A stretch of DNA of 37,977 nt from a virus (lineage: Duplodnaviria > Caudoviricetes). Below, piece after piece: positions 12,550 to 21,511 of this stretch; positions within the stretch are counted from its first letter, which is position 1, and each line of letters begins with the position of its first letter. The position numbers and the translations under genes were made by a program. The DNA lies in the IMG/VR virus record IMGVR_UViG_3300010206_000037, positions 1 through 37,977 of that record; one strand, given 5' to 3'. Below the pieces are notes generated by a model. That model saw only the letters and a list, made by a program, of their open reading frames with translations. It did no database searches and was not told the DNA's origin.

Positions 12550-13911
12550 GTGCTAGTAACAATCATCATTATGGGCGTTCTATGCGTTGCGCTCTTATAC
12601 CTTTGGCATAAAGCCACTGCCGAAAACAAGTCGCTTAAGTCTCGCTATGGCAGCATCATTAATGAAGAAGAACACCTAGCTACCATTATATCGGAACAGC
12701 GGGCAAGAGAAGCCGAGAGCAGTAAAGAACAGGGTATTATTGACAATTTGAAAGCAGAAAGCACTGCTCTATACAATCAGATCGCCAATCTTGAAGTGGA
12801 CGTTCTATTGAATGAGGTTGGCTTATATAAGCCGAAGTTTGATTTGGATTCATCTGAAGATTACAGGCGCAGATTAGATCTCTGTTACGCAGCAGCCGCA
12901 GATTTGATAAAGAGTAAAAAAGCGGTTTCGTGTCCTGGAAATATGACTCTTGATGGTAGTCTGTCCAAGGGACAAAAGATGATGAACAATATTGTTAAGC
13001 TAATGCTCCGAGCTTTTAACGGTGAGTGCGACGCTTGTATTGCGAAGGTAAAGTGGGATAATGTTCAGCGTATGGAAGACAGAATTAAGAAGGCGTTCGA
13101 AGTAGTCAATAAATCGTCAGAATCCTATAACAGCAGCATCACATGGAAATACATGGAGTCCAGGTTAGATGAGCTTCATCTTGAGTATGAATTAGAAGTG
13201 AAAAAGAATGAAGAAAAAGAAGAGCAGCGCAGGATAAAAGAGGAAATGAGGGAGGAAGAAAAGGCTAGGCGCGAAATAGAGAAAGCCAAAGAAGATGCTG
13301 AAAAAGAAGAAGCCAGGTATCAGTCGGCTTTGGAAAAAGCCAGAATGGAATTATCGAAGGCTACAGACGCGAAGAAAGATGTGCTAGCTGAAAAAGTCGC
13401 CCAGCTTGAGGAGCAGTTGAAGAAAGCTCATGAGATGAAGGTTCGCGCTATTTCTAGAGCGCAAATGACCAAGTCTGGCCATGTGTATATCATTTCGAAT
13501 ATCGGATCTTTTGGCGAAAACATGTTCAAGATAGGCATGACCCGCAGACTTGAACCATTAGACCGCGTTAAAGAACTCGGTGATGCTTCTGTTCCTTTTT
13601 CATTCGATGTGCACGGTATGTTCTTTTCAGAAAACGCACCTGCTTTAGAAAACATGCTGCATAAAGCTTTTGCTGATAAGCGAGTAAATCTTGTCAACTT
13701 GAGAAAAGAGTTTTTCAACCTCTCACTGCATGATATAGAAGGGTGGGCTGGGGAAAATAGTCACAATCTAAAGCTAACGAAGCTTGCTGAAGCAAGAGAG
13801 TGGCGCGAGACTCAGGCAATTAAAGCAAAAGGCATTGCAGCCATTATTGATGCAAGTAATCAAATGGTAACGGCTACTGAGTTGAAATCATCGAATGAAG
13901 AGGACGATTGA
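12550..13911 (+). CDS. DUF4041 / T5orf172 (GIY-YIG-like) protein with N-terminal TM and coiled coil
   Basis: KLMLRAFNGECD; GHVYIISNIGSFGENMFKIGMTRRLEPLDRVKELGDASVPFSFDVH..RVNLVNLRKEFF. Confidence 0.92.
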   Translation: MLVTIIIMGVLCVALLYLWHKATAENKSLKSRYGSIINEEEHLATIISEQRAREAESSKEQGIIDNLKAESTALYNQIANLEVDVLLNEVGLYKPKFDLDSSEDYRRRLDLCYAAAADLIKSKKAVSCPGNMTLDGSLSKGQKMMNNIVKLMLRAFNGECDACIAKVKWDNVQRMEDRIKKAFEVVNKSSESYNSSITWKYMESRLDELHLEYELEVKKNEEKEEQRRIKEEMREEEKARREIEKAKEDAEKEEARYQSALEKARMELSKATDAKKDVLAEKVAQLEEQLKKAHEMKVRAISRAQMTKSGHVYIISNIGSFGENMFKIGMTRRLEPLDRVKELGDASVPFSFDVHGMFFSENAPALENMLHKAFADKRVNLVNLRKEFFNLSLHDIEGWAGENSHNLKLTKLAEAREWRETQAIKAKGIAAIIDASNQMVTATELKSSNEEDD

Positions 13912-14568: not shown

Positions 14569-15930
14569 ATGGCAATTGTGATTAATGCAAAACTGAAAGA
14601 TCTCGATTTAGATCTTGAAAACCCAAGACTTCATAAGCCCGCAAATCAACGGGATGTAATTGGACAATTATTGTCAACAGGTAAAGAAGCTGAGAAAAAA
14701 CATCTAAACCTTGCAAAAGATATCCTAGAGAATGGGCTGAATCCAACAGATTTAATCATTGTGAGTCCAGCTTCAGAAAAGGGTAGACGGATCGTTTATG
14801 AGGGCAATCGACGCGTATGCGCAATGCTCTGTATTCAGAATCCAGACTTTTTAGAAGGTATTAGCAATCGCCTCAAACGAGCGTTTTCGGATTTGAATAC
14901 GAAACTTTTACCAAAGACAATAACCTGCGTTGAAATGAGCCGCCAAGACGCAACTCTATGGATAGTTAAAAAGCATATGGGTGTTAATGAAGGACGGGGA
15001 ACTTGGACCTGGTCTTCTCTACAAAAAGCTAGATGGGATTATTCAGTTACTGGAGTGATGAATACCCATATTGCCATTCAAATGATTATTCAAGACGATG
15101 AAGATGGGATGATAGCATTCGAAGAGTCGAACACAACAACAGTCGTCCGTATTATCGAATCTGCACTAGTTCAAGAATATGTCGGCTATTATTTTAAAGA
15201 AAAGCAAATTCAGTCTGATTTAGATGAAAATGAACTGCGCTATCGATTTGTCAGCATTATAAAAGCAGTGCCCGAAGTCCGTGACGTATATACCGATAGT
15301 CTTGCGAAGGGCTGGGTTTCCAGAACGTTCCCTCAATTCAAGGTCAAGCCAGTTCCTGTTGCGGTCTTACCTAAAAGTCAAGAAAAATCGCAAATTGAAA
15401 CAGTCGTTGTGTCTGCCACCAGACCGGTCTATTCGCGTAAAACTCGCGCACCAAAATATGGACTTGATAGGAAATATCTGATTAGCAAGGGAAGCCTTCC
15501 TAATATACCATCAGATACGCGTTTGTCTGACATGTATATAGAGCTATCTCAACGATTAGTCGTCAATGAAGTCGCAAATGCATGTGCAGTTCTTTTTCGA
15601 TCATTCATTGAATTGACGCTTAAAGAATTCATGCGGAGTCATAAAATTCATGACACAAAAGAGATGGTTGATAAGCTTCGCAACACTAAAAAAGTTGAAT
15701 TATCGCTAAAGGAAAAGCTTTTTGCATCAATAGATAAACTTATCGTACTGTATCCCGATGAAAAAAAGGCCCTAGCATCAGCTAAACAAGCCATATCTTC
15801 GACTCCGCTATATCAAATTAGTGACATGAACGCATTTGTGCATGATCCAAATTTCCATCCAGATCCATCAGGATTGAAATCCACATGGGATAATTTAAGG
15901 ATCGTGTTCACACTTATCTTTCGAGCATGA
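14569..15930 (+). CDS. ParB/Srx-like N-terminal domain + HEPN-like C-terminal domain; probable defence effector
   Basis: LDLDLENPRL and IVYEGNRRVCA (ParB-like); NACAVLFRSFIELTL..MNAFVHDP..STWDNL (HEPN-like helical bundle). Confidence 0.7.
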   Translation: MAIVINAKLKDLDLDLENPRLHKPANQRDVIGQLLSTGKEAEKKHLNLAKDILENGLNPTDLIIVSPASEKGRRIVYEGNRRVCAMLCIQNPDFLEGISNRLKRAFSDLNTKLLPKTITCVEMSRQDATLWIVKKHMGVNEGRGTWTWSSLQKARWDYSVTGVMNTHIAIQMIIQDDEDGMIAFEESNTTTVVRIIESALVQEYVGYYFKEKQIQSDLDENELRYRFVSIIKAVPEVRDVYTDSLAKGWVSRTFPQFKVKPVPVAVLPKSQEKSQIETVVVSATRPVYSRKTRAPKYGLDRKYLISKGSLPNIPSDTRLSDMYIELSQRLVVNEVANACAVLFRSFIELTLKEFMRSHKIHDTKEMVDKLRNTKKVELSLKEKLFASIDKLIVLYPDEKKALASAKQAISSTPLYQISDMNAFVHDPNFHPDPSGLKSTWDNLRIVFTLIFRA

Positions 15931-15975: not shown

Positions 15976-16848
15976 ATGTCTGGTTCTAAATCTATTTATA
16001 CTCCGTTGCGGTATCCTGGTGGAAAAGCGAAACTTGCAAATTTCATTAAACTTATTCTTCACGAAAATGATTTAATAGATGGGCATTATGCTGAGCCTTA
16101 TGCAGGTGGAGCTGGAGTCGCTTTTGAATTGCTCTTGCAAGGTTATACCCAAGAGGTCCACATCAATGACATTGACCCCGGCGTTCATGCCTTTTGGAAC
16201 GCTGTACTCAACCAAACGGATGAACTCTGTCGAAGGATTTCCAGAGTCACGCTGAGCGTGCCAACCTGGAAACGCCAGCGCAATATTCAGCGCGAAATCA
16301 CGGATCCGTTGTCGTTTGAACTGGGTTTCTCTACGTTCTACTTGAATCGGACCAATCGCTCTGGAATTATCAAAGGCGGCGTGATCGGTGGTTTGGACCA
16401 AACCGGTAATTACAAGATTGATGCTCGGTTCAACCGAGAAAAATTGATCAAGCGAATTGAAAAAATTGCCTATTTCTCGGATCGTGTACACCTTTCCAAT
16501 GAAGATGCAATTTTATTTCTCGCCCGAATGGACAGGGAATTGCCTGAAAAATCCCTGACATATCTAGACCCACCTTACTATGTGAAGGGCGGCGACCTCT
16601 ATAAAAACTTCTACAAGCATAGCGATCATGCCCGAGTTGAATCGGCAGTCCGGACATTTTCAAAACACTGGATAGTTAGCTATGACAATGTTCCGCAAAT
16701 ACAAGACCTGTATTCTTGGAGCCGTGGAATAGTTTACGACCTGAACTATAGCGCCCATACGGCTGGCATTGGTTCGGAAGCAATGTTTTTTAGTGCGGAT
16801 TTATCCATTCCAGAAGTTGAGAACCCCTCAAAAGTACATGTAGCTTAG
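15976..16848 (+). CDS. DNA adenine methyltransferase (D12 class), partner of the ParB-HEPN gene
   Basis: TPLRYPGGK, EPYAGGAG, INDID, YLNRTNRSG, YLDPPY. Confidence 0.92.
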   Translation: MSGSKSIYTPLRYPGGKAKLANFIKLILHENDLIDGHYAEPYAGGAGVAFELLLQGYTQEVHINDIDPGVHAFWNAVLNQTDELCRRISRVTLSVPTWKRQRNIQREITDPLSFELGFSTFYLNRTNRSGIIKGGVIGGLDQTGNYKIDARFNREKLIKRIEKIAYFSDRVHLSNEDAILFLARMDRELPEKSLTYLDPPYYVKGGDLYKNFYKHSDHARVESAVRTFSKHWIVSYDNVPQIQDLYSWSRGIVYDLNYSAHTAGIGSEAMFFSADLSIPEVENPSKVHVA

Positions 16849-16901: not shown

Positions 16902-17702
16902 ATGCCAAACATCAAACCGACCCTCAAGACTCCAGTCAGCTACTACGGTGGCAAACAAAAACTCTGCAAAACCATCCTGGGGCTAATACCCCCACATAGC
17001 CTCTACTGCGAACCCTTTGTGGGCGGTGGGGCTATTTTCTTTGCCAAGCCCAAGAGCGAAGTAGAAGTGATCAACGACACCAATGGCGAGCTGATCAACT
17101 TCTATCGCGTGGTGCAGCGCGACTTCGTGTCGCTGGAAAAAGAGATCCACATCAGTCTACACAGCCGGGACATGCACCGCAAGGCTTCGGTTGTCTACAA
17201 CAATCCGGACATGTTCAATGAGGTGCGCCGCGCCTGGGCGGTGTGGGTGCTGGCCCACATGAGCTTTAGCAGTATGCTCGATGGCTCCTTTGGTTACGAC
17301 AAGACCAAGGGCACCACCAGCAAGAAGATCGCGAACGCCCGCGAGGCCTTCTCGGAAGAACTGGCGATCCGCATGCAGCAAACCCAGATAGAGTGCACCG
17401 ACGCCCTGCGCATCATTGAGAGCCGCGACACACCCGATGCGTTCCACTATTGCGACCCCCCATATTTCAATAGCGACTGCGGTCACTACGACGGTTATAC
17501 ACAAGCGGACTTTGAAGCCCTGCTGAAGGTGCTTTCAAAGGTGCAGGGCAAGTTCCTGCTGAGCAGCTACCCGTCCCCAATTTTGGCCGAGTACACGACC
17601 CACTATGGTTGGAAACAGGACCGTCATGAAATGGACGTGACCGTTGCGGCCAAGAGCGGCAAGCGAAAAGTTAAAACTGAAGTGTTAACTCGAAACTATT
17701 AG
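16902..17702 (+). CDS. Second DNA adenine methyltransferase (D12 class, phage type)
   Basis: SYYGGK, EPFVGGG, EVIND, YCDPPY, EVLTRNY; base composition like the phage core. Confidence 0.92.
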   Translation: MPNIKPTLKTPVSYYGGKQKLCKTILGLIPPHSLYCEPFVGGGAIFFAKPKSEVEVINDTNGELINFYRVVQRDFVSLEKEIHISLHSRDMHRKASVVYNNPDMFNEVRRAWAVWVLAHMSFSSMLDGSFGYDKTKGTTSKKIANAREAFSEELAIRMQQTQIECTDALRIIESRDTPDAFHYCDPPYFNSDCGHYDGYTQADFEALLKVLSKVQGKFLLSSYPSPILAEYTTHYGWKQDRHEMDVTVAAKSGKRKVKTEVLTRNY

Positions 17703-17747: not shown

Positions 17748-18041
17748 ATGTCAGGTGTATGGGACTTTCTAAAAATTGACGATTTGCCAAACAAGGAGCT
17801 GCGCTGGATTGCGCGGAATATTGGCATGGAAGTAGCCATAAAGGTTTGGCGGAACTTCAAAGGTGAGCACATTGCCTGTCCCGCAAAAATCGACCGGGAA
17901 ATCGTCTGCCGATATATGCGGGAACACTTTACCAAAACAGCCCATGAGCTTGCAATAGACGCCGGTGTCAATGCCCGGACGATCTACCGTTACAAAGACT
18001 ACAAGCCATCCCGCAACCCGAATCAGACCAGCCTGTTCTAG
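17748..18041 (+). CDS. Mor/C-family transcription activator
   Basis: IARNIGMEVAIKVWRNFKGEHIACP plus a C-terminal HTH (ELAIDAGVNARTIYR). Confidence 0.8.
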   Translation: MSGVWDFLKIDDLPNKELRWIARNIGMEVAIKVWRNFKGEHIACPAKIDREIVCRYMREHFTKTAHELAIDAGVNARTIYRYKDYKPSRNPNQTSLF

Positions 18042-18550
18042 TCCATCAGGTGGGCTAGGATAATGCGCTTGGCCATCTCGATGTCTTCGTCCTGCACCAC
18101 CAGATAGGGGCGTGCAGGAATTTCCACCGACTTGTTGCGCCCGGCCATTCCACCGAACTGGTGGATGCGTGCATAGGGTCTGTTGTCCGGCCCAATGGAT
18201 ACGCCCTCACTGTCAGCCTCATGATGGATGCTGTCCATGAGTCCCCCGCGCATGCCGCTTCCCACCAGTATTCTCCGAGAGGACACGCGCTTTGCAGCCG
18301 AAGCCGTGAGGCCTCCCTTCTTCTTGAAGTCCTTGTTGCGGAGACTCCCCAATATTGTGGCATCGGCAAGTTCTTTCCATTTCTCCGGTCGTCCCCCCTG
18401 CAAGAAATTCTCGCGCACGCTTTTGACTACCTGGTCGCCAATGACCTTCATTGGAACTTCCATGTCATGGATTCGTTGCCGCATGGATTCGAGCCAGGCG
18501 TTGAAGCCCTTGTCGTCGATCTGGATGTCTATTGGGTATCTTGATGCCAT
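18038..18550 (-). CDS. Virion morphogenesis protein (Mu gpG-like)
   Basis: ENFLQGGRPEKWKEL..YARIHQFGG..IPARPYL. Confidence 0.92.
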   Translation of the reverse strand: MASRYPIDIQIDDKGFNAWLESMRQRIHDMEVPMKVIGDQVVKSVRENFLQGGRPEKWKELADATILGSLRNKDFKKKGGLTASAAKRVSSRRILVGSGMRGGLMDSIHHEADSEGVSIGPDNRPYARIHQFGGMAGRNKSVEIPARPYLVVQDEDIEMAKRIILAHLMD

Positions 18551-18556
18551 GGGCGC

Positions 18557-18585
18557 TTGACCTCGGGGGCGGTTTTGGGTATATT
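18557..18585 (+). promoter_or_regulatory. Sigma70 promoter antisense to the head operon
   Basis: TTGACC (18557-18562), exactly 17 bp, TATATT (18580-18585). Confidence 0.75.
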
Positions 18586-18590
18586 GTTGA

Positions 18591-18705
18591 TGTCAATGGT
18601 TCGCGAGGGCTATCTCCCTTTGACCGAATCGGCGACTCCAGCGCCGGAGATGGACGGTGAAGTGGATATCAAAAGGGCCTCTTGGTTAGCCAGGGGGCCT
18701 TTTTT
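18591..18705 (+). ncRNA. Candidate ~115-nt structured small RNA between gpG and gpF
   Basis: Bounded by the promoter above and a plus-strand terminator; internal stems CTATCTCC/GGAGATGG and GGCG/CGCC; no convincing self-contained ORF with an RBS. Confidence 0.6.
18676..18705 (+). terminator. Plus-strand intrinsic terminator
   Basis: GGCCTCTTGG-TTAG-CCAGGGGGCC followed by T6. Two G-U pairs form only on the plus strand. Confidence 0.8.
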
Positions 18706-19918
18706 ATTTGACCTTGACGCCTTCCAATCTCATTTTGGCGATCTGCTTAAGTTCCTTCCGATAGCCTGTCCACGAGAACAAACACCCCTTCTCGGCCCTG
18801 AAAACGAAGAGGAAAGGCTTGACTGCGCCTTCTTCAATAAACACCTTGAAGAAATTTGCAGTGATAGACATTTTGCCCGTCGGGCTCTTGGAAAAAGTAA
18901 AGCGAACCTCTCCGGGATCCGCGACCGTCTCAATGAAAAAATTGACCAGCATTGTGCGGTCAGGCTTCCACTCGTCCTTGCCAGGTGTCAAGATGTGCTT
19001 GCCGATGGCTTTCGGGCTGATGACGAGCGGGTACTTGGAACCGCCGAGGTCTTTCATGATGGTCACGTGGTCTTTCGCAAACACGGCGTCGGAGTCGTTC
19101 CCAAACCGCTTCTCCAGGGCTCCCATGAAGTTCGCCTCGAATTCGGCCTTGTCTTCCGTCTGCCTCGATCTTTTCGGCGCGGCGGTGGCCGGAAGCTGAT
19201 GGTCTGGCCGTCCAGTGTCCTTCCAGAGCCCGTCCTGTTCTGTGATCGTCCATCCGTTTGGAGGCACACCAGGCTTGCCCCATGCCGCATTTCCCACATT
19301 GTAATCCCAGCCCTTGTCGATACCTTTGGTGTCGTCTGCTGGCGTGGGGGCGGTGGACAGCACCTTGAGCCCAAGCGCCTTCACTTCCAAGGCGCTGACA
19401 GGTTCTTTCCAGCATCGACAGCCCCAACCGTTTGGTGGCGTGTGCTTGTCCCACCAGGGATCGTCCAAAGGCAACACGATGTTATTCCATGCCTTGTGCT
19501 CGGGCCGTTCGCGCCCGTCGTCCATGGAGCGGTAGCGGGCGTAGGGATAGATCTTGCGCATCTTCGGGTCTTGCATCTGCCGTTCGCGCCCCGCCGCGTA
19601 GGCCGTATGCACGTTGGTCTGGTAGATGAGGTCGCTTCGCCACTTGCGTGTGCCGTTATACTGCCAGCCGGTCTTGTCCACGATCTGGTCGAACTGCTTA
19701 CGGAACTCGCCAATGCTCATGCCATCGGTCAAGGCCTTCTCGACGGCCTTGCGGAAATCGCACAGGATGTCCTCGCGCATGGCTCCTGCCACCGTGAAAG
19801 CCTTCGCATGCATTTCTCCTTGCAAATCCTTCCATGTCTTCGTGGGCAGGTTGATCTTGTCCTTGAAGAACTTGACGGCGTCCTTGTATTCGCCGGTCTT
19901 GAATCCCATCGCTGTCAT
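18704..19918 (-). CDS. Mu gpF-like head morphogenesis protein with C-terminal PBECR-like nuclease extension
   Basis: AFTVAG, IYQTNVHTAYAAGR, DGRERPEH, PPNGWGCRC, GWDYNVG. The extra C-terminal domain has H..R..IETVADPGEV..FFKVF..WTGY..R.EG. Confidence 0.88.
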   Translation of the reverse strand: MTAMGFKTGEYKDAVKFFKDKINLPTKTWKDLQGEMHAKAFTVAGAMREDILCDFRKAVEKALTDGMSIGEFRKQFDQIVDKTGWQYNGTRKWRSDLIYQTNVHTAYAAGRERQMQDPKMRKIYPYARYRSMDDGRERPEHKAWNNIVLPLDDPWWDKHTPPNGWGCRCWKEPVSALEVKALGLKVLSTAPTPADDTKGIDKGWDYNVGNAAWGKPGVPPNGWTITEQDGLWKDTGRPDHQLPATAAPKRSRQTEDKAEFEANFMGALEKRFGNDSDAVFAKDHVTIMKDLGGSKYPLVISPKAIGKHILTPGKDEWKPDRTMLVNFFIETVADPGEVRFTFSKSPTGKMSITANFFKVFIEEGAVKPFLFVFRAEKGCLFSWTGYRKELKQIAKMRLEGVKVK

Positions 19919-21381
19919 TTTATCAGCCCAGCCTTGTCGAGTATCTCGTAGCGACCCGCCATGTCTGCGGCCATGAAGGCCTGTTCAAGCTCCACGGCGA
20001 TAGCATCGGTGCCAATCTCGGCAAAGGTTCCCAGCAGAGCATCCCTTACGTCTTCAAGGCTGTCGGCATTCTCCACCAGCTTGCGGATGGGATCCAATAT
20101 GTGCGTGCCTGCCACCTTGTCCGCTAGCGCTTTAGCAAAGGAGTCGCCTGGTGTCACGGCATCCGGCCCTTCCGCGAATTCGCCACCGCTCTTGCCGCCG
20201 GTACCGGAAGAAGTCTGAACGACCGTTGCTATGTGTTTGGGGTTGATGCCGAAGGTGTCCACGAAGTAGTCCGCGTTGAAACGCAGGCCCATGCCATGCA
20301 ACTGTTTGTCGCGGGATATGCGACCCATTTGCAGGTCTTCGGGGAGCTGGATGCTGAACCATGGAATGTTCTTGTCTTCGGGCCAGTTGAGCTCGTAGAT
20401 CCAGCGGATGAGCTGGTTCATGGCGGTCTCGACCATGTCCGCGTCGTCCATGGTGAGTTCTTTGCGCACTTCATTGTGGACTTCGCCAAGCGCCCTTGTG
20501 CCGCCGGTGTCCGCCTGTTCGGTGGTGAGCGTCTCGCCCAGCCAGGCCTTGCTCATTTCCCGGTCGGCCCACTTGACGATCTCGGGGTGCGGCATGGATC
20601 CGCCGGTCTTGGATTCCAGCAGGCTCACATCCCCGTTTTCCGGGATCACGGCCACTGCATCGCGCACGAGCCCGGCCAGCTGCTTCAACAAGTCGCTCTT
20701 TTCCTTTTCGGAGGCCGAGCCAGGCACCTTGCCGATCACCTTCGGGTGGCCGAACTTCTCCGCGAAGATCATCCAGAACTTCAGGCCGCCCTTCTTGAAG
20801 GCGATGGGCCAGAAGCAGCGCGACAGGACGGCCTTGCCGTATGGGTTGCTGGCGGAAGCGCGGTGGCGGGCCACGATGAACTTGCGCTCGGGCAGTTCGC
20901 GGATCGTCGAGGTCTTGTCCATCAGAATCAGTTCGCCGTCCTCGTCGAAGCGGAACCACTCCTGCGGCTTGTCCTTGAGCTCCGTGGGCAGCACCAGGCC
21001 ATCGACTACGTCCCAGATCACCTCGTGCACCTGGTAGCCATAGCCGGGGGCCTCCATCATCATCTCGATGGCGTTGCGCAAGCCAAGGTTCCAGAGGTGT
21101 TCCTCCACGAACTTCGCCCGTGTTTTGTCGGCCTTGCCCGAGTCCAGCACCCAGGGGCGGGATGTCACCGCCCGTGTGCGCTTGTCACGCACTGCGTCCA
21201 GGTGTCCGTCCACGAAATTGCGGTAGGTCTGGATGCCTCCACCCTGGGTGCGCAGGATGGGGTCGGGGTTGGGCAGGTACTCCAGGGACGAGAGCCACTG
21301 CACCACGTCGTGGGTCGCCACCTCGGTCCCGTATTCGGGCCGCTGGACGCTTTTTCCTCTGTTCTTGTTTCGCTTGGCCAT
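19915..21381 (-). CDS. Portal protein (Mu gp29, DUF935)
   Basis: LPNPDPIL, NPYGKAVLSRCFWP..FAEKFG.P, MSKAWLGETLTTE, ALGEVHNEVR; GGAG RBS 8 nt before 21381. Confidence 0.93.
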   Translation of the reverse strand: MAKRNKNRGKSVQRPEYGTEVATHDVVQWLSSLEYLPNPDPILRTQGGGIQTYRNFVDGHLDAVRDKRTRAVTSRPWVLDSGKADKTRAKFVEEHLWNLGLRNAIEMMMEAPGYGYQVHEVIWDVVDGLVLPTELKDKPQEWFRFDEDGELILMDKTSTIRELPERKFIVARHRASASNPYGKAVLSRCFWPIAFKKGGLKFWMIFAEKFGHPKVIGKVPGSASEKEKSDLLKQLAGLVRDAVAVIPENGDVSLLESKTGGSMPHPEIVKWADREMSKAWLGETLTTEQADTGGTRALGEVHNEVRKELTMDDADMVETAMNQLIRWIYELNWPEDKNIPWFSIQLPEDLQMGRISRDKQLHGMGLRFNADYFVDTFGINPKHIATVVQTSSGTGGKSGGEFAEGPDAVTPGDSFAKALADKVAGTHILDPIRKLVENADSLEDVRDALLGTFAEIGTDAIAVELEQAFMAADMAGRYEILDKAGLIK

Positions 21382-21511
21382 CGTCATGTCTCCATTTGCC
21401 AACAAGCCCGTTCAAACTCTTTGAATTTCGATTGAAAAAGTTTTCACGGGGCTTTGTTTGTCTTTGAGTGATCGGCCCTCACAGGGGCCTTAAAACGGGT
21501 TTTCCATCGGA

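Follow-up and report, generated by a model that had tools for sequence, protein, structure and literature searches.

The window, by which we mean the whole 37,977-nt stretch of viral DNA analysed here, was recognised by Pfam profile search as a prophage of the Mu-like kind, encoding a transposase, terminase and portal as well as gpF, gpG and tail proteins. On its minus strand, a Mu-type portal gene (19915–21405, assigned by Pfam) lies upstream of gpF (18704–19918), which encodes a 404-aa MuF head protein with a predicted C-terminal PBECR2 nuclease domain, and gpF is separated by a gap of 153 bp (18551–18703) from the downstream late gene gpG (Phage_tail_S; 18038–18550). Among the other genes of the prophage, we noted anti-phage defence genes on the plus strand at 12550–13911 and 14569–15930 (PD-Lambda-1, E 3e-158; PD-Lambda-5_A, E 3e-76), after which come tandem D12-class adenine methyltransferase genes (15976–16848 and 16902–17702, plus strand), the second being conserved in the related locus L004 beside a Mor/C-like gene.

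The only Pfam matches of gpF were Phage_Mu_F at amino acids 57–169 (19412–19750, minus strand; E 1.5e-18) and PBECR2 at amino acids 297–401 (18716–19030, minus strand), and PADLOC returned no match for this protein. The PBECR2 match (PF18810; E 8e-6, 26.5 bits) falls just below the cut-off of 27.1 bits; the nearest gpF homologues, L004 and L008, clear it with 61 and 43.5 bits, and the Atlas structure neighbours of the gpF tail are likewise PBECR2 (TM 0.76 and 0.71), all of which bears out the earlier note's reading of the tail as a PBECR-type domain. PBECR domains are described in PMC5512222 as carrying a His-plus-Thr/Ser site, with the His in a helix and the Thr on the last strand, and PBECR2 as being fused to MuF. 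The gpF match carries conserved His308, Arg321 and Thr384, with His308 inside helix 302–309 and Thr384 inside strand 379–387, as that description of the site has it; across 81 aligned rows the His was invariant and the Arg and Thr were conserved in at least 90%.

A structure model built for the tail domain only (pLDDT 87) gave its best fold matches, with weak scores (Z 4.0–4.3), to CdiA-CT NC101, colicin D and CdiA-CT Kp342, and 14 of the best 20 rows of this search were CDI toxins, colicin D or toxins of toxin-antitoxin systems (best Z 4.3, rmsd 4.5, 84 residues aligned). Foldseek with the PBECR2 domain model found no match, and fold searches with full-length gpF gave nothing informative. The three best-matching toxins are acceptor-stem and anticodon tRNases (PMC9086364), and PBECRs have been assigned to a colicin-like group in which most characterised members have tRNA as their target (bioRxiv 10.64898/2026.08.28.747851). 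Judged from the model, the PBECR2 domain of gpF is probably an active colicin-D-like RNase, and probably a tRNase.

The gap between gpF and gpG holds a complete plus-strand unit, in which the promoter, the body and the terminator were all found where the earlier note had placed them, though the ends of the RNA are predicted. A sigma-70-type promoter (TTGACC-17-TATATT; 18557–18585, plus strand), which recurs in relatives, adjoins the gpG start region and is followed by a predicted small RNA of ~115 nt (18592–18706, plus strand), and an intrinsic terminator (18676–18709, plus strand), with a 10-bp stem (18676–85/18690–99) containing two G-U pairs, lays its U tract over the gpF stop codon. Antisense to the late operon in which it lies, the RNA extends over the gpF stop, and the late mRNA would read through the gap. 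In keeping with the proposal that the terminator is strand-specific, its fold energy was −21.3 kcal/mol on the plus strand (z −4.4) vs −11.5 on the minus strand; a simple terminator scanner did not list the 18676–18709 stem. The same region contains a 464-codon open frame (18557–19951, plus strand), antisense to gpF and beginning at the −35 box, which is probably a shadow of gpF.

Two hairpins were predicted in the RNA, both on the plus strand: hairpin 1 (18597–18631), present in the window fold and the family fold, with a basal stem, a 3' bulge, a GGG/CCC apical stem and a loop at 18610–18615, and hairpin 2 (18637–18666), present in the window fold, with a loop at 18647–18654. The two loops can form a kissing helix (18610–18615 with 18648–18653; spanning 18610–18653, plus strand) of 6 bp including one G-U, extendable to 7, which covaries in the family; the minimum-energy fold of the window already holds both of its strands in hairpin loops. 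The pseudoknot suggested earlier for the body stands in part: both of the named pairings exist and cross each other, but GGAGATGG is best placed in the loop of the hairpin at 18637–18666, which gives a kissing-loop fold like that of the relatives, and the GGCG/CGCC helix of the earlier suggestion had to be rejected, since it conflicts with both family hairpins.

Taken in the window, the unit is not exceptional. TTGACC-17-TATATT is the sole promoter-like site in 3 kb, and shuffled sequence yields 1.0 such site on average, so the promoter is not significant by itself and takes its weight from its recurrence in relatives; a fold energy of −48.9 (z −3.2) was obtained for the 115-nt unit, and once the terminator is left off, the stability of the body is nothing unusual (z −0.9). 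With a promoter at chance level and a body of ordinary stability, the case for the RNA rests on comparison. The substitutions carried by near-identical relatives, at 18590, 18620 and 18633, avoid the core helices and leave both promoter hexamers untouched. A metatranscriptome run (X20) contained a 184-nt contig spanning 18508–18691 at a depth of ~5, which shows no discrete RNA, since its start lies upstream of the promoter and pieces of gpF occur in the run too.

We found no conserved immunity ORF within the gap, which is non-coding in relatives too, and it is the RNA that occupies the immunity slot behind gpF, as had been supposed. Rfam 15 gave no match at gathering score in the window or in 20 + 20 related loci, and tRNA models recognised no cloverleaf in the window. 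The idea that the RNA might guide the nuclease found no support: its variable loops are taken up in pairing with one another, and no target was found in the window, where the longest perfect complement of the RNA elsewhere was 11 nt.

We therefore turn to the comparison. Scans with MuF and PBECR2 alignments, of 401 genomes of one phylum and of GenBank phages yielded 198 distinct PBECR2-like ORFs, and the promoter-RNA-terminator unit of the window, predicted to recur convergently behind MuF-PBECR2 genes, was indeed found behind them in many unrelated phages. The nearest phages found, L004 and L008 (gpF 46–49% identical), share the convergent promoter and likewise have a terminator where gpF ends, with body sequences that differ. 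With promoter weights based on the E. coli consensus, a convergent promoter scoring at least 6 was called behind 126/156 intact domains, 3/23 broken ones and 2/19 short MuF genes, vs 23/156 for the sense-strand control; in the relatives it typically lies 76–110 nt past the stop of the PBECR2 gene. The expectation that the RNA would be absent behind short MuF genes held as well, 11 of the 12 with a located gpG abutting it, and the exception (L020) having a simple repeat in the gap. The pair of nuclease and RNA is carried by the cultured phages Thermus Riverbug, Rhodobacter RcWaterboi and Rhizobium RR1-B, and stand-alone PBECR2 genes (L266 and L267), which have neither MuF nor gpG and lie beside housekeeping genes, also have the RNA downstream.

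Direct searches were less productive. A word-index protein search with the gpF tail returned a single match, a 99% identical copy, and a full HMMER search returned 5 real relatives plus P0008, a chance hit; tblastn gave no match for the window tail against phages, nor for a His-clade tail against plasmids. As a metagenome scan and a repeat viral scan gave only loci of the L004/L008 type, the window's own subfamily amounts to three distinct RNAs. A search of 5 genomes for orphan RNAs with model R1, run without a positive control, found none. Several arrangements of the gene and the RNA were noted along the way. At L102:2874–3173 (minus strand) there are two tandem RNA units, each with its own promoter and with different kissing pairs and loops, possibly an orphan immunity cassette, and L119 may be similar. 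An apparent split or shortening in the N-terminal part of the MuF-PBECR2 gene was seen in L099–L101, L104, L113, L139, L149, L175 and L265, where the domain and the RNA look intact; L274, L285 and L286 encode portal-MuF-PBECR2 fusions of >600 aa with an RNA whose bulge matches the window's.

The RNAs linked to PBECR2 consist of two hairpins whose loops are complementary inside each locus. In a blind test of loop pairing on 110 non-redundant RNAs (from 158 promoter-called loci, 153 of them with two hairpins), loop complementarity was 5.07 within loci vs 3.58 ± 0.08 when permuted, with a permuted maximum of 3.93 in 10,000, and the loops of these RNAs displayed 59 different pairing strings. A covariance model built from 30 seeds with nested pairs only, which leaves the kissing helix unmodelled, matched 41 places in 93 sources. 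On the resulting alignment, with the helix columns placed by eye from a single row, the kissing helix was paired in 94.4% and showed compensatory changes at 6/6 pairs, vs 23–62% paired when the columns were slid; hairpin 1 was paired in 86–96% and hairpin 2, which aligns less well, in 69%. The covariation anticipated among homologues is thus present, and the kissing loop-loop helix is conserved as a covarying pair in this RNA family. The family model misses other clades and scores the window RNA weakly (6.4 bits, E 1.9), yet as the top hit in 3 kb; with such a score, the family membership of the window RNA rests on its position, topology and local motif. In a further set of loci (L266, L267, L268, L270–L273, L275, L278, L279 and L283), an extra closing stem makes a three-way junction around the kissing hairpins.

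We then compared the state of the nuclease with the gap to gpG, scoring the residues that are invariant in RNA-bearing seeds, namely His and Arg in one clade and two Lys in the other. After 15 of the 198 ORFs were dropped (motif not anchored), along with 40 whose locus lacks gpG and 1 with an intermediate gap, 142 loci were classified by an intact/broken rule, which was written with the alignments already in view and makes one special provision, for L262: 121 were intact with a gap, 21 were broken with no gap, and neither an intact domain with no gap nor a broken one with a gap occurred. Hence no intact PBECR2 without room for the RNA was found in the 142 classified loci, many of which are near-copies that inflate the counts, the independent events numbering ~4–6. 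A quick tree of 78 rows, covering the Lys clade only, forced at least 3 changes, including one within the sister pair L238/L256, and the His-clade losses L168, L171 and L080 come in addition to these. Mu's own MuF tail, a PBECR version, has been termed inactive (PMC5512222), and in phage Mu this dead tail has no gap behind it, overlapping G by 4 nt. Later checks agreed, JBD25 having a dead motif and a 1-nt gap, and Riverbug an intact motif and the RNA; the Ralstonia phage YO108_2 has a variant motif, yet kept the RNA. Most of the intact loci missed by the automated calls show the RNA by eye, an insert displacing it in some (L029, L061 and L119); the RNA of L012 has another fold, and L124, L169 and L284 were left uncalled.

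This pattern bears on two explanations that place the RNA outside the nuclease. According to one, the RNA would be a prohead RNA like the phi29 pRNA, with loop-loop pairing between copies building a ring at the portal that aids packaging. Its location in the head operon beside the portal and MuF genes, and complementary loops that could pair between molecules, are as this explanation would have them, but close relatives with the same head genes lack the RNA, which also follows stand-alone PBECR2 genes outside head modules; as it tracks the nuclease residues and not the packaging genes, we regard a prohead role as very improbable. The other, raised in the earlier note, is that the RNA silences gpG and the downstream late genes by antisense pairing or transcription interference. 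The promoter does overlap the gpG start region in many loci; against this, the RNA starts ~40 nt from the gpG start codon and points away, it is present where gpG does not follow (L039, L041, L070, L266 and Riverbug, for example), so the relatives' RNA does not need gpG, and gpG has no such RNA in front of it where the nuclease is dead or missing. We give silencing of gpG almost no credence.

We consider instead, with a probability of roughly 60% and judging by sequence comparison, that the RNA would be an antitoxin that binds and neutralises a likely tRNA-cutting virion toxin, the PBECR2 domain of gpF, probably as a substrate-like decoy. In this scheme the RNA would confer immunity against a toxin that forms the tip of gpF and is predicted to ride in the phage head. 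gpF would be made late and packaged, and the RNA, transcribed from the opposite strand by its own housekeeping-type promoter, would be present in the lysogen as well as in the lytic cycle, so that the producer cell and kin lysogens would be protected. Until the RNA is made from the incoming DNA, a naive cell would be exposed to the injected nuclease. As a decoy the RNA would probably resemble tRNA, and the kissing helix would be a scaffold able to change in sequence. In contigs of related phages the gpG start and the promoter are shared, and the sequences then diverge straight after the −10 box, with breakpoints inside gpF, as expected for the exchange of a toxin-immunity cassette.

The loss of the RNA together with the conserved nuclease residues fits an antitoxin, and a required cofactor would predict it just as well, so co-loss by itself does not separate the two. 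Were the RNA a required subunit, gpF would travel as a protein-RNA complex, in packaging and delivery alike, and the domain would decay after loss of the RNA; the symmetry of the co-loss, a conserved fold with free loop sequence and the basic nature of the lost residues, which could bind RNA, all suit such a complex. Relatives of the PBECR2 fold, however, act without an RNA subunit, as reported in PMC9086364 and bioRxiv 10.64898/2026.08.28.747851, and no guide-like free segment or target was found; a housekeeping promoter set apart from the late operon better suits protection, and the tRNA-like partner RNAs described below resemble substrates. We hold a required subunit to be unlikely.

A type I-like antisense action, in which the RNA or its read-through would pair with the late mRNA at the end of gpF and lower leaky toxin synthesis, is in our estimate still less probable. 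Co-loss fits it as well, the RNA lies on the opposite strand in every locus and is fully complementary to the late mRNA, and tail-to-tail type I pairs exist in Bacillus prophages. In addition, a U-rich tail ends only 63/133 of the RNAs and is absent in 70/133, so antisense read-through is possible. On the other side, an internal covarying helix, for which antisense pairing has no need, ties up both loops, the bulge motif is conserved and tRNA-like sister RNAs exist, the window RNA ends at the gpF stop codon, and an antisense RNA could not act on a protein delivered by the virion.

The likeness to tRNA came from two sources. CCA occurs in the hairpin-1 bulge of 22/28 Lys-clade RNAs vs 3.0 expected, an enrichment that is missing in the window's His clade (16/74 vs 10.7 expected). 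A likeness of the His-clade bulge to an anticodon loop was set aside, as nearly any short bulge resembles some anticodon. The second source was a set of sister MuF tails, tied to Mu's MuF-C by alignment and weak Pfam hits only. Where such tails bear the His and have enough downstream sequence, a convergent structured RNA was seen by eye in 17/18; L353 has kept the His and has no RNA within 1 kb. The His-less sister tails lack the RNA: gpG follows with no gap in JBD67, L349, L359 and Mu, and no more than a remnant is present in L303.

Four of the sister-group RNAs (L318, L344, L345 and L374), lying downstream of MuF, are tRNA-like cloverleaves with a T-arm and no CCA. That of L345 aligned to the Rfam tRNA model along its full length (positions 1–71) with 18.8 bits, the cut-off being 29 bits, and that of L318 aligned weakly to tRNA-Sec; ARAGORN called a tRNA in 0/28 related loci, and the tails adjoining the tRNA-like RNAs have no Pfam match of their own. 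Rfam assigned no family in another 16 loci, its one match being an unrelated sRNA-Xcc1 after gpG (L344:1934–2036, plus strand; 61.9 bits). By eye, more RNA folds were seen behind long MuF tails in L024, L054, L083, L086, L357 and L378, in L015, L036 and L081, and likewise in L049, L317, L320, L324, L338 and L369, these further folds being overall apparent H-type pseudoknots and multi-arm junctions. More tentatively, and at somewhat less than even odds, all virion nucleases of the PBECR type may use RNA immunity, each lineage with its own decoy that mimics tRNA, be it a true cloverleaf complete with T-arm, a kissing-loop scaffold that displays an internal CCA or, in the window's group, a kissing-loop with another bulge.

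Several known systems resemble parts of this arrangement. Like the type III toxin-antitoxin systems ToxIN, CptIN and TenpIN (PMC3401426), it would pair a protein toxin with a small pseudoknotted RNA, although the shared inhibition of a protein by RNA is only the best reading of our data. In those systems, as described there, the RNA consists of repeats arranged in tandem, upstream of the toxin; here it occurs just once, downstream, on the opposite strand and under its own promoter, its pseudoknot is a kissing-loop pair, and the toxin is a PBECR2 domain fused to a head protein, outside the three known type III toxin families. Literal type III membership is not supported, two defining features of the type III families being absent; on balance we favour the view that the PBECR2 RNA would work like a type III antitoxin and yet be no member of these families.

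The window also matches the setting of the MuF polymorphic toxins (PMC5576092), in which MuF with a variable C-terminal domain occurs in temperate phages with a partner directly downstream: its head module, with transposase, terminase, portal and MuF, includes a MuF protein with a C-terminal toxin-like domain. A small downstream ORF was reported for 89.4% of 191 known MuF toxins; the slot taken there by an ORF is occupied here by a convergent non-coding RNA, and the main text of PMC5576092, in the parts available to us, makes no mention of ncRNA. Nor do the accessible portions of PMC5512222 and bioRxiv 10.64898/2026.08.28.747851 name an RNA partner or immunity factor for PBECR2. Colicin D and the CdiA-CT tRNases of NC101, Kp342 and EC3006 (PDB 5znm, 5i4q, 6cp9 and 6cp8), the best fold matches albeit with weak scores, are blocked by immunity proteins, whereas we propose an RNA.

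Other RNAs offer looser parallels. AbiF is a HEPN-fold nuclease with a downstream RNA, and the phi29 pRNA is needed for packaging and pairs loop-loop. AbiF shares with our module an RNA beside a nuclease gene and differs from PBECR2 in fold and layout; the pRNA shares loop-loop pairing and a phage head context, but the PBECR2 RNA is lost in close relatives. Type I systems share an antisense RNA that overlaps the toxin mRNA, and here the internal kissing helix argues against pairing with the mRNA. Our literature searches found no report of a PBECR2-linked RNA, though unnamed motif lists in supplements could contain such RNAs.

To summarize, the module of RNA and nuclease is real, widespread and apparently undescribed. 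To our knowledge, the MuF tails of Mu-like phages have had no known function and no known immunity partner, and the RNA provides a specific candidate partner for them, as well as a genomic marker of active vs dead domains. It also adds a widespread class of structured RNA that is missing from Rfam and is sometimes annotated as a tiny hypothetical protein, as with Riverbug_28, a 31-aa 'hypothetical protein' that overlies the Riverbug RNA (L290:1545–1640) and has probably been annotated in error. Inhibition of the nuclease by the RNA, if real, would bring RNA antitoxins to a nuclease fold and a gene layout that are both new, and to toxins delivered by virions, the likely means being tRNA mimicry. 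Should PBECR nucleases indeed share RNA immunity, they would form a new toxin-antitoxin class and the first polymorphic toxin with non-coding immunity, and toxin-RNA cassettes would be swapped between Mu-like phages across many bacterial groups.
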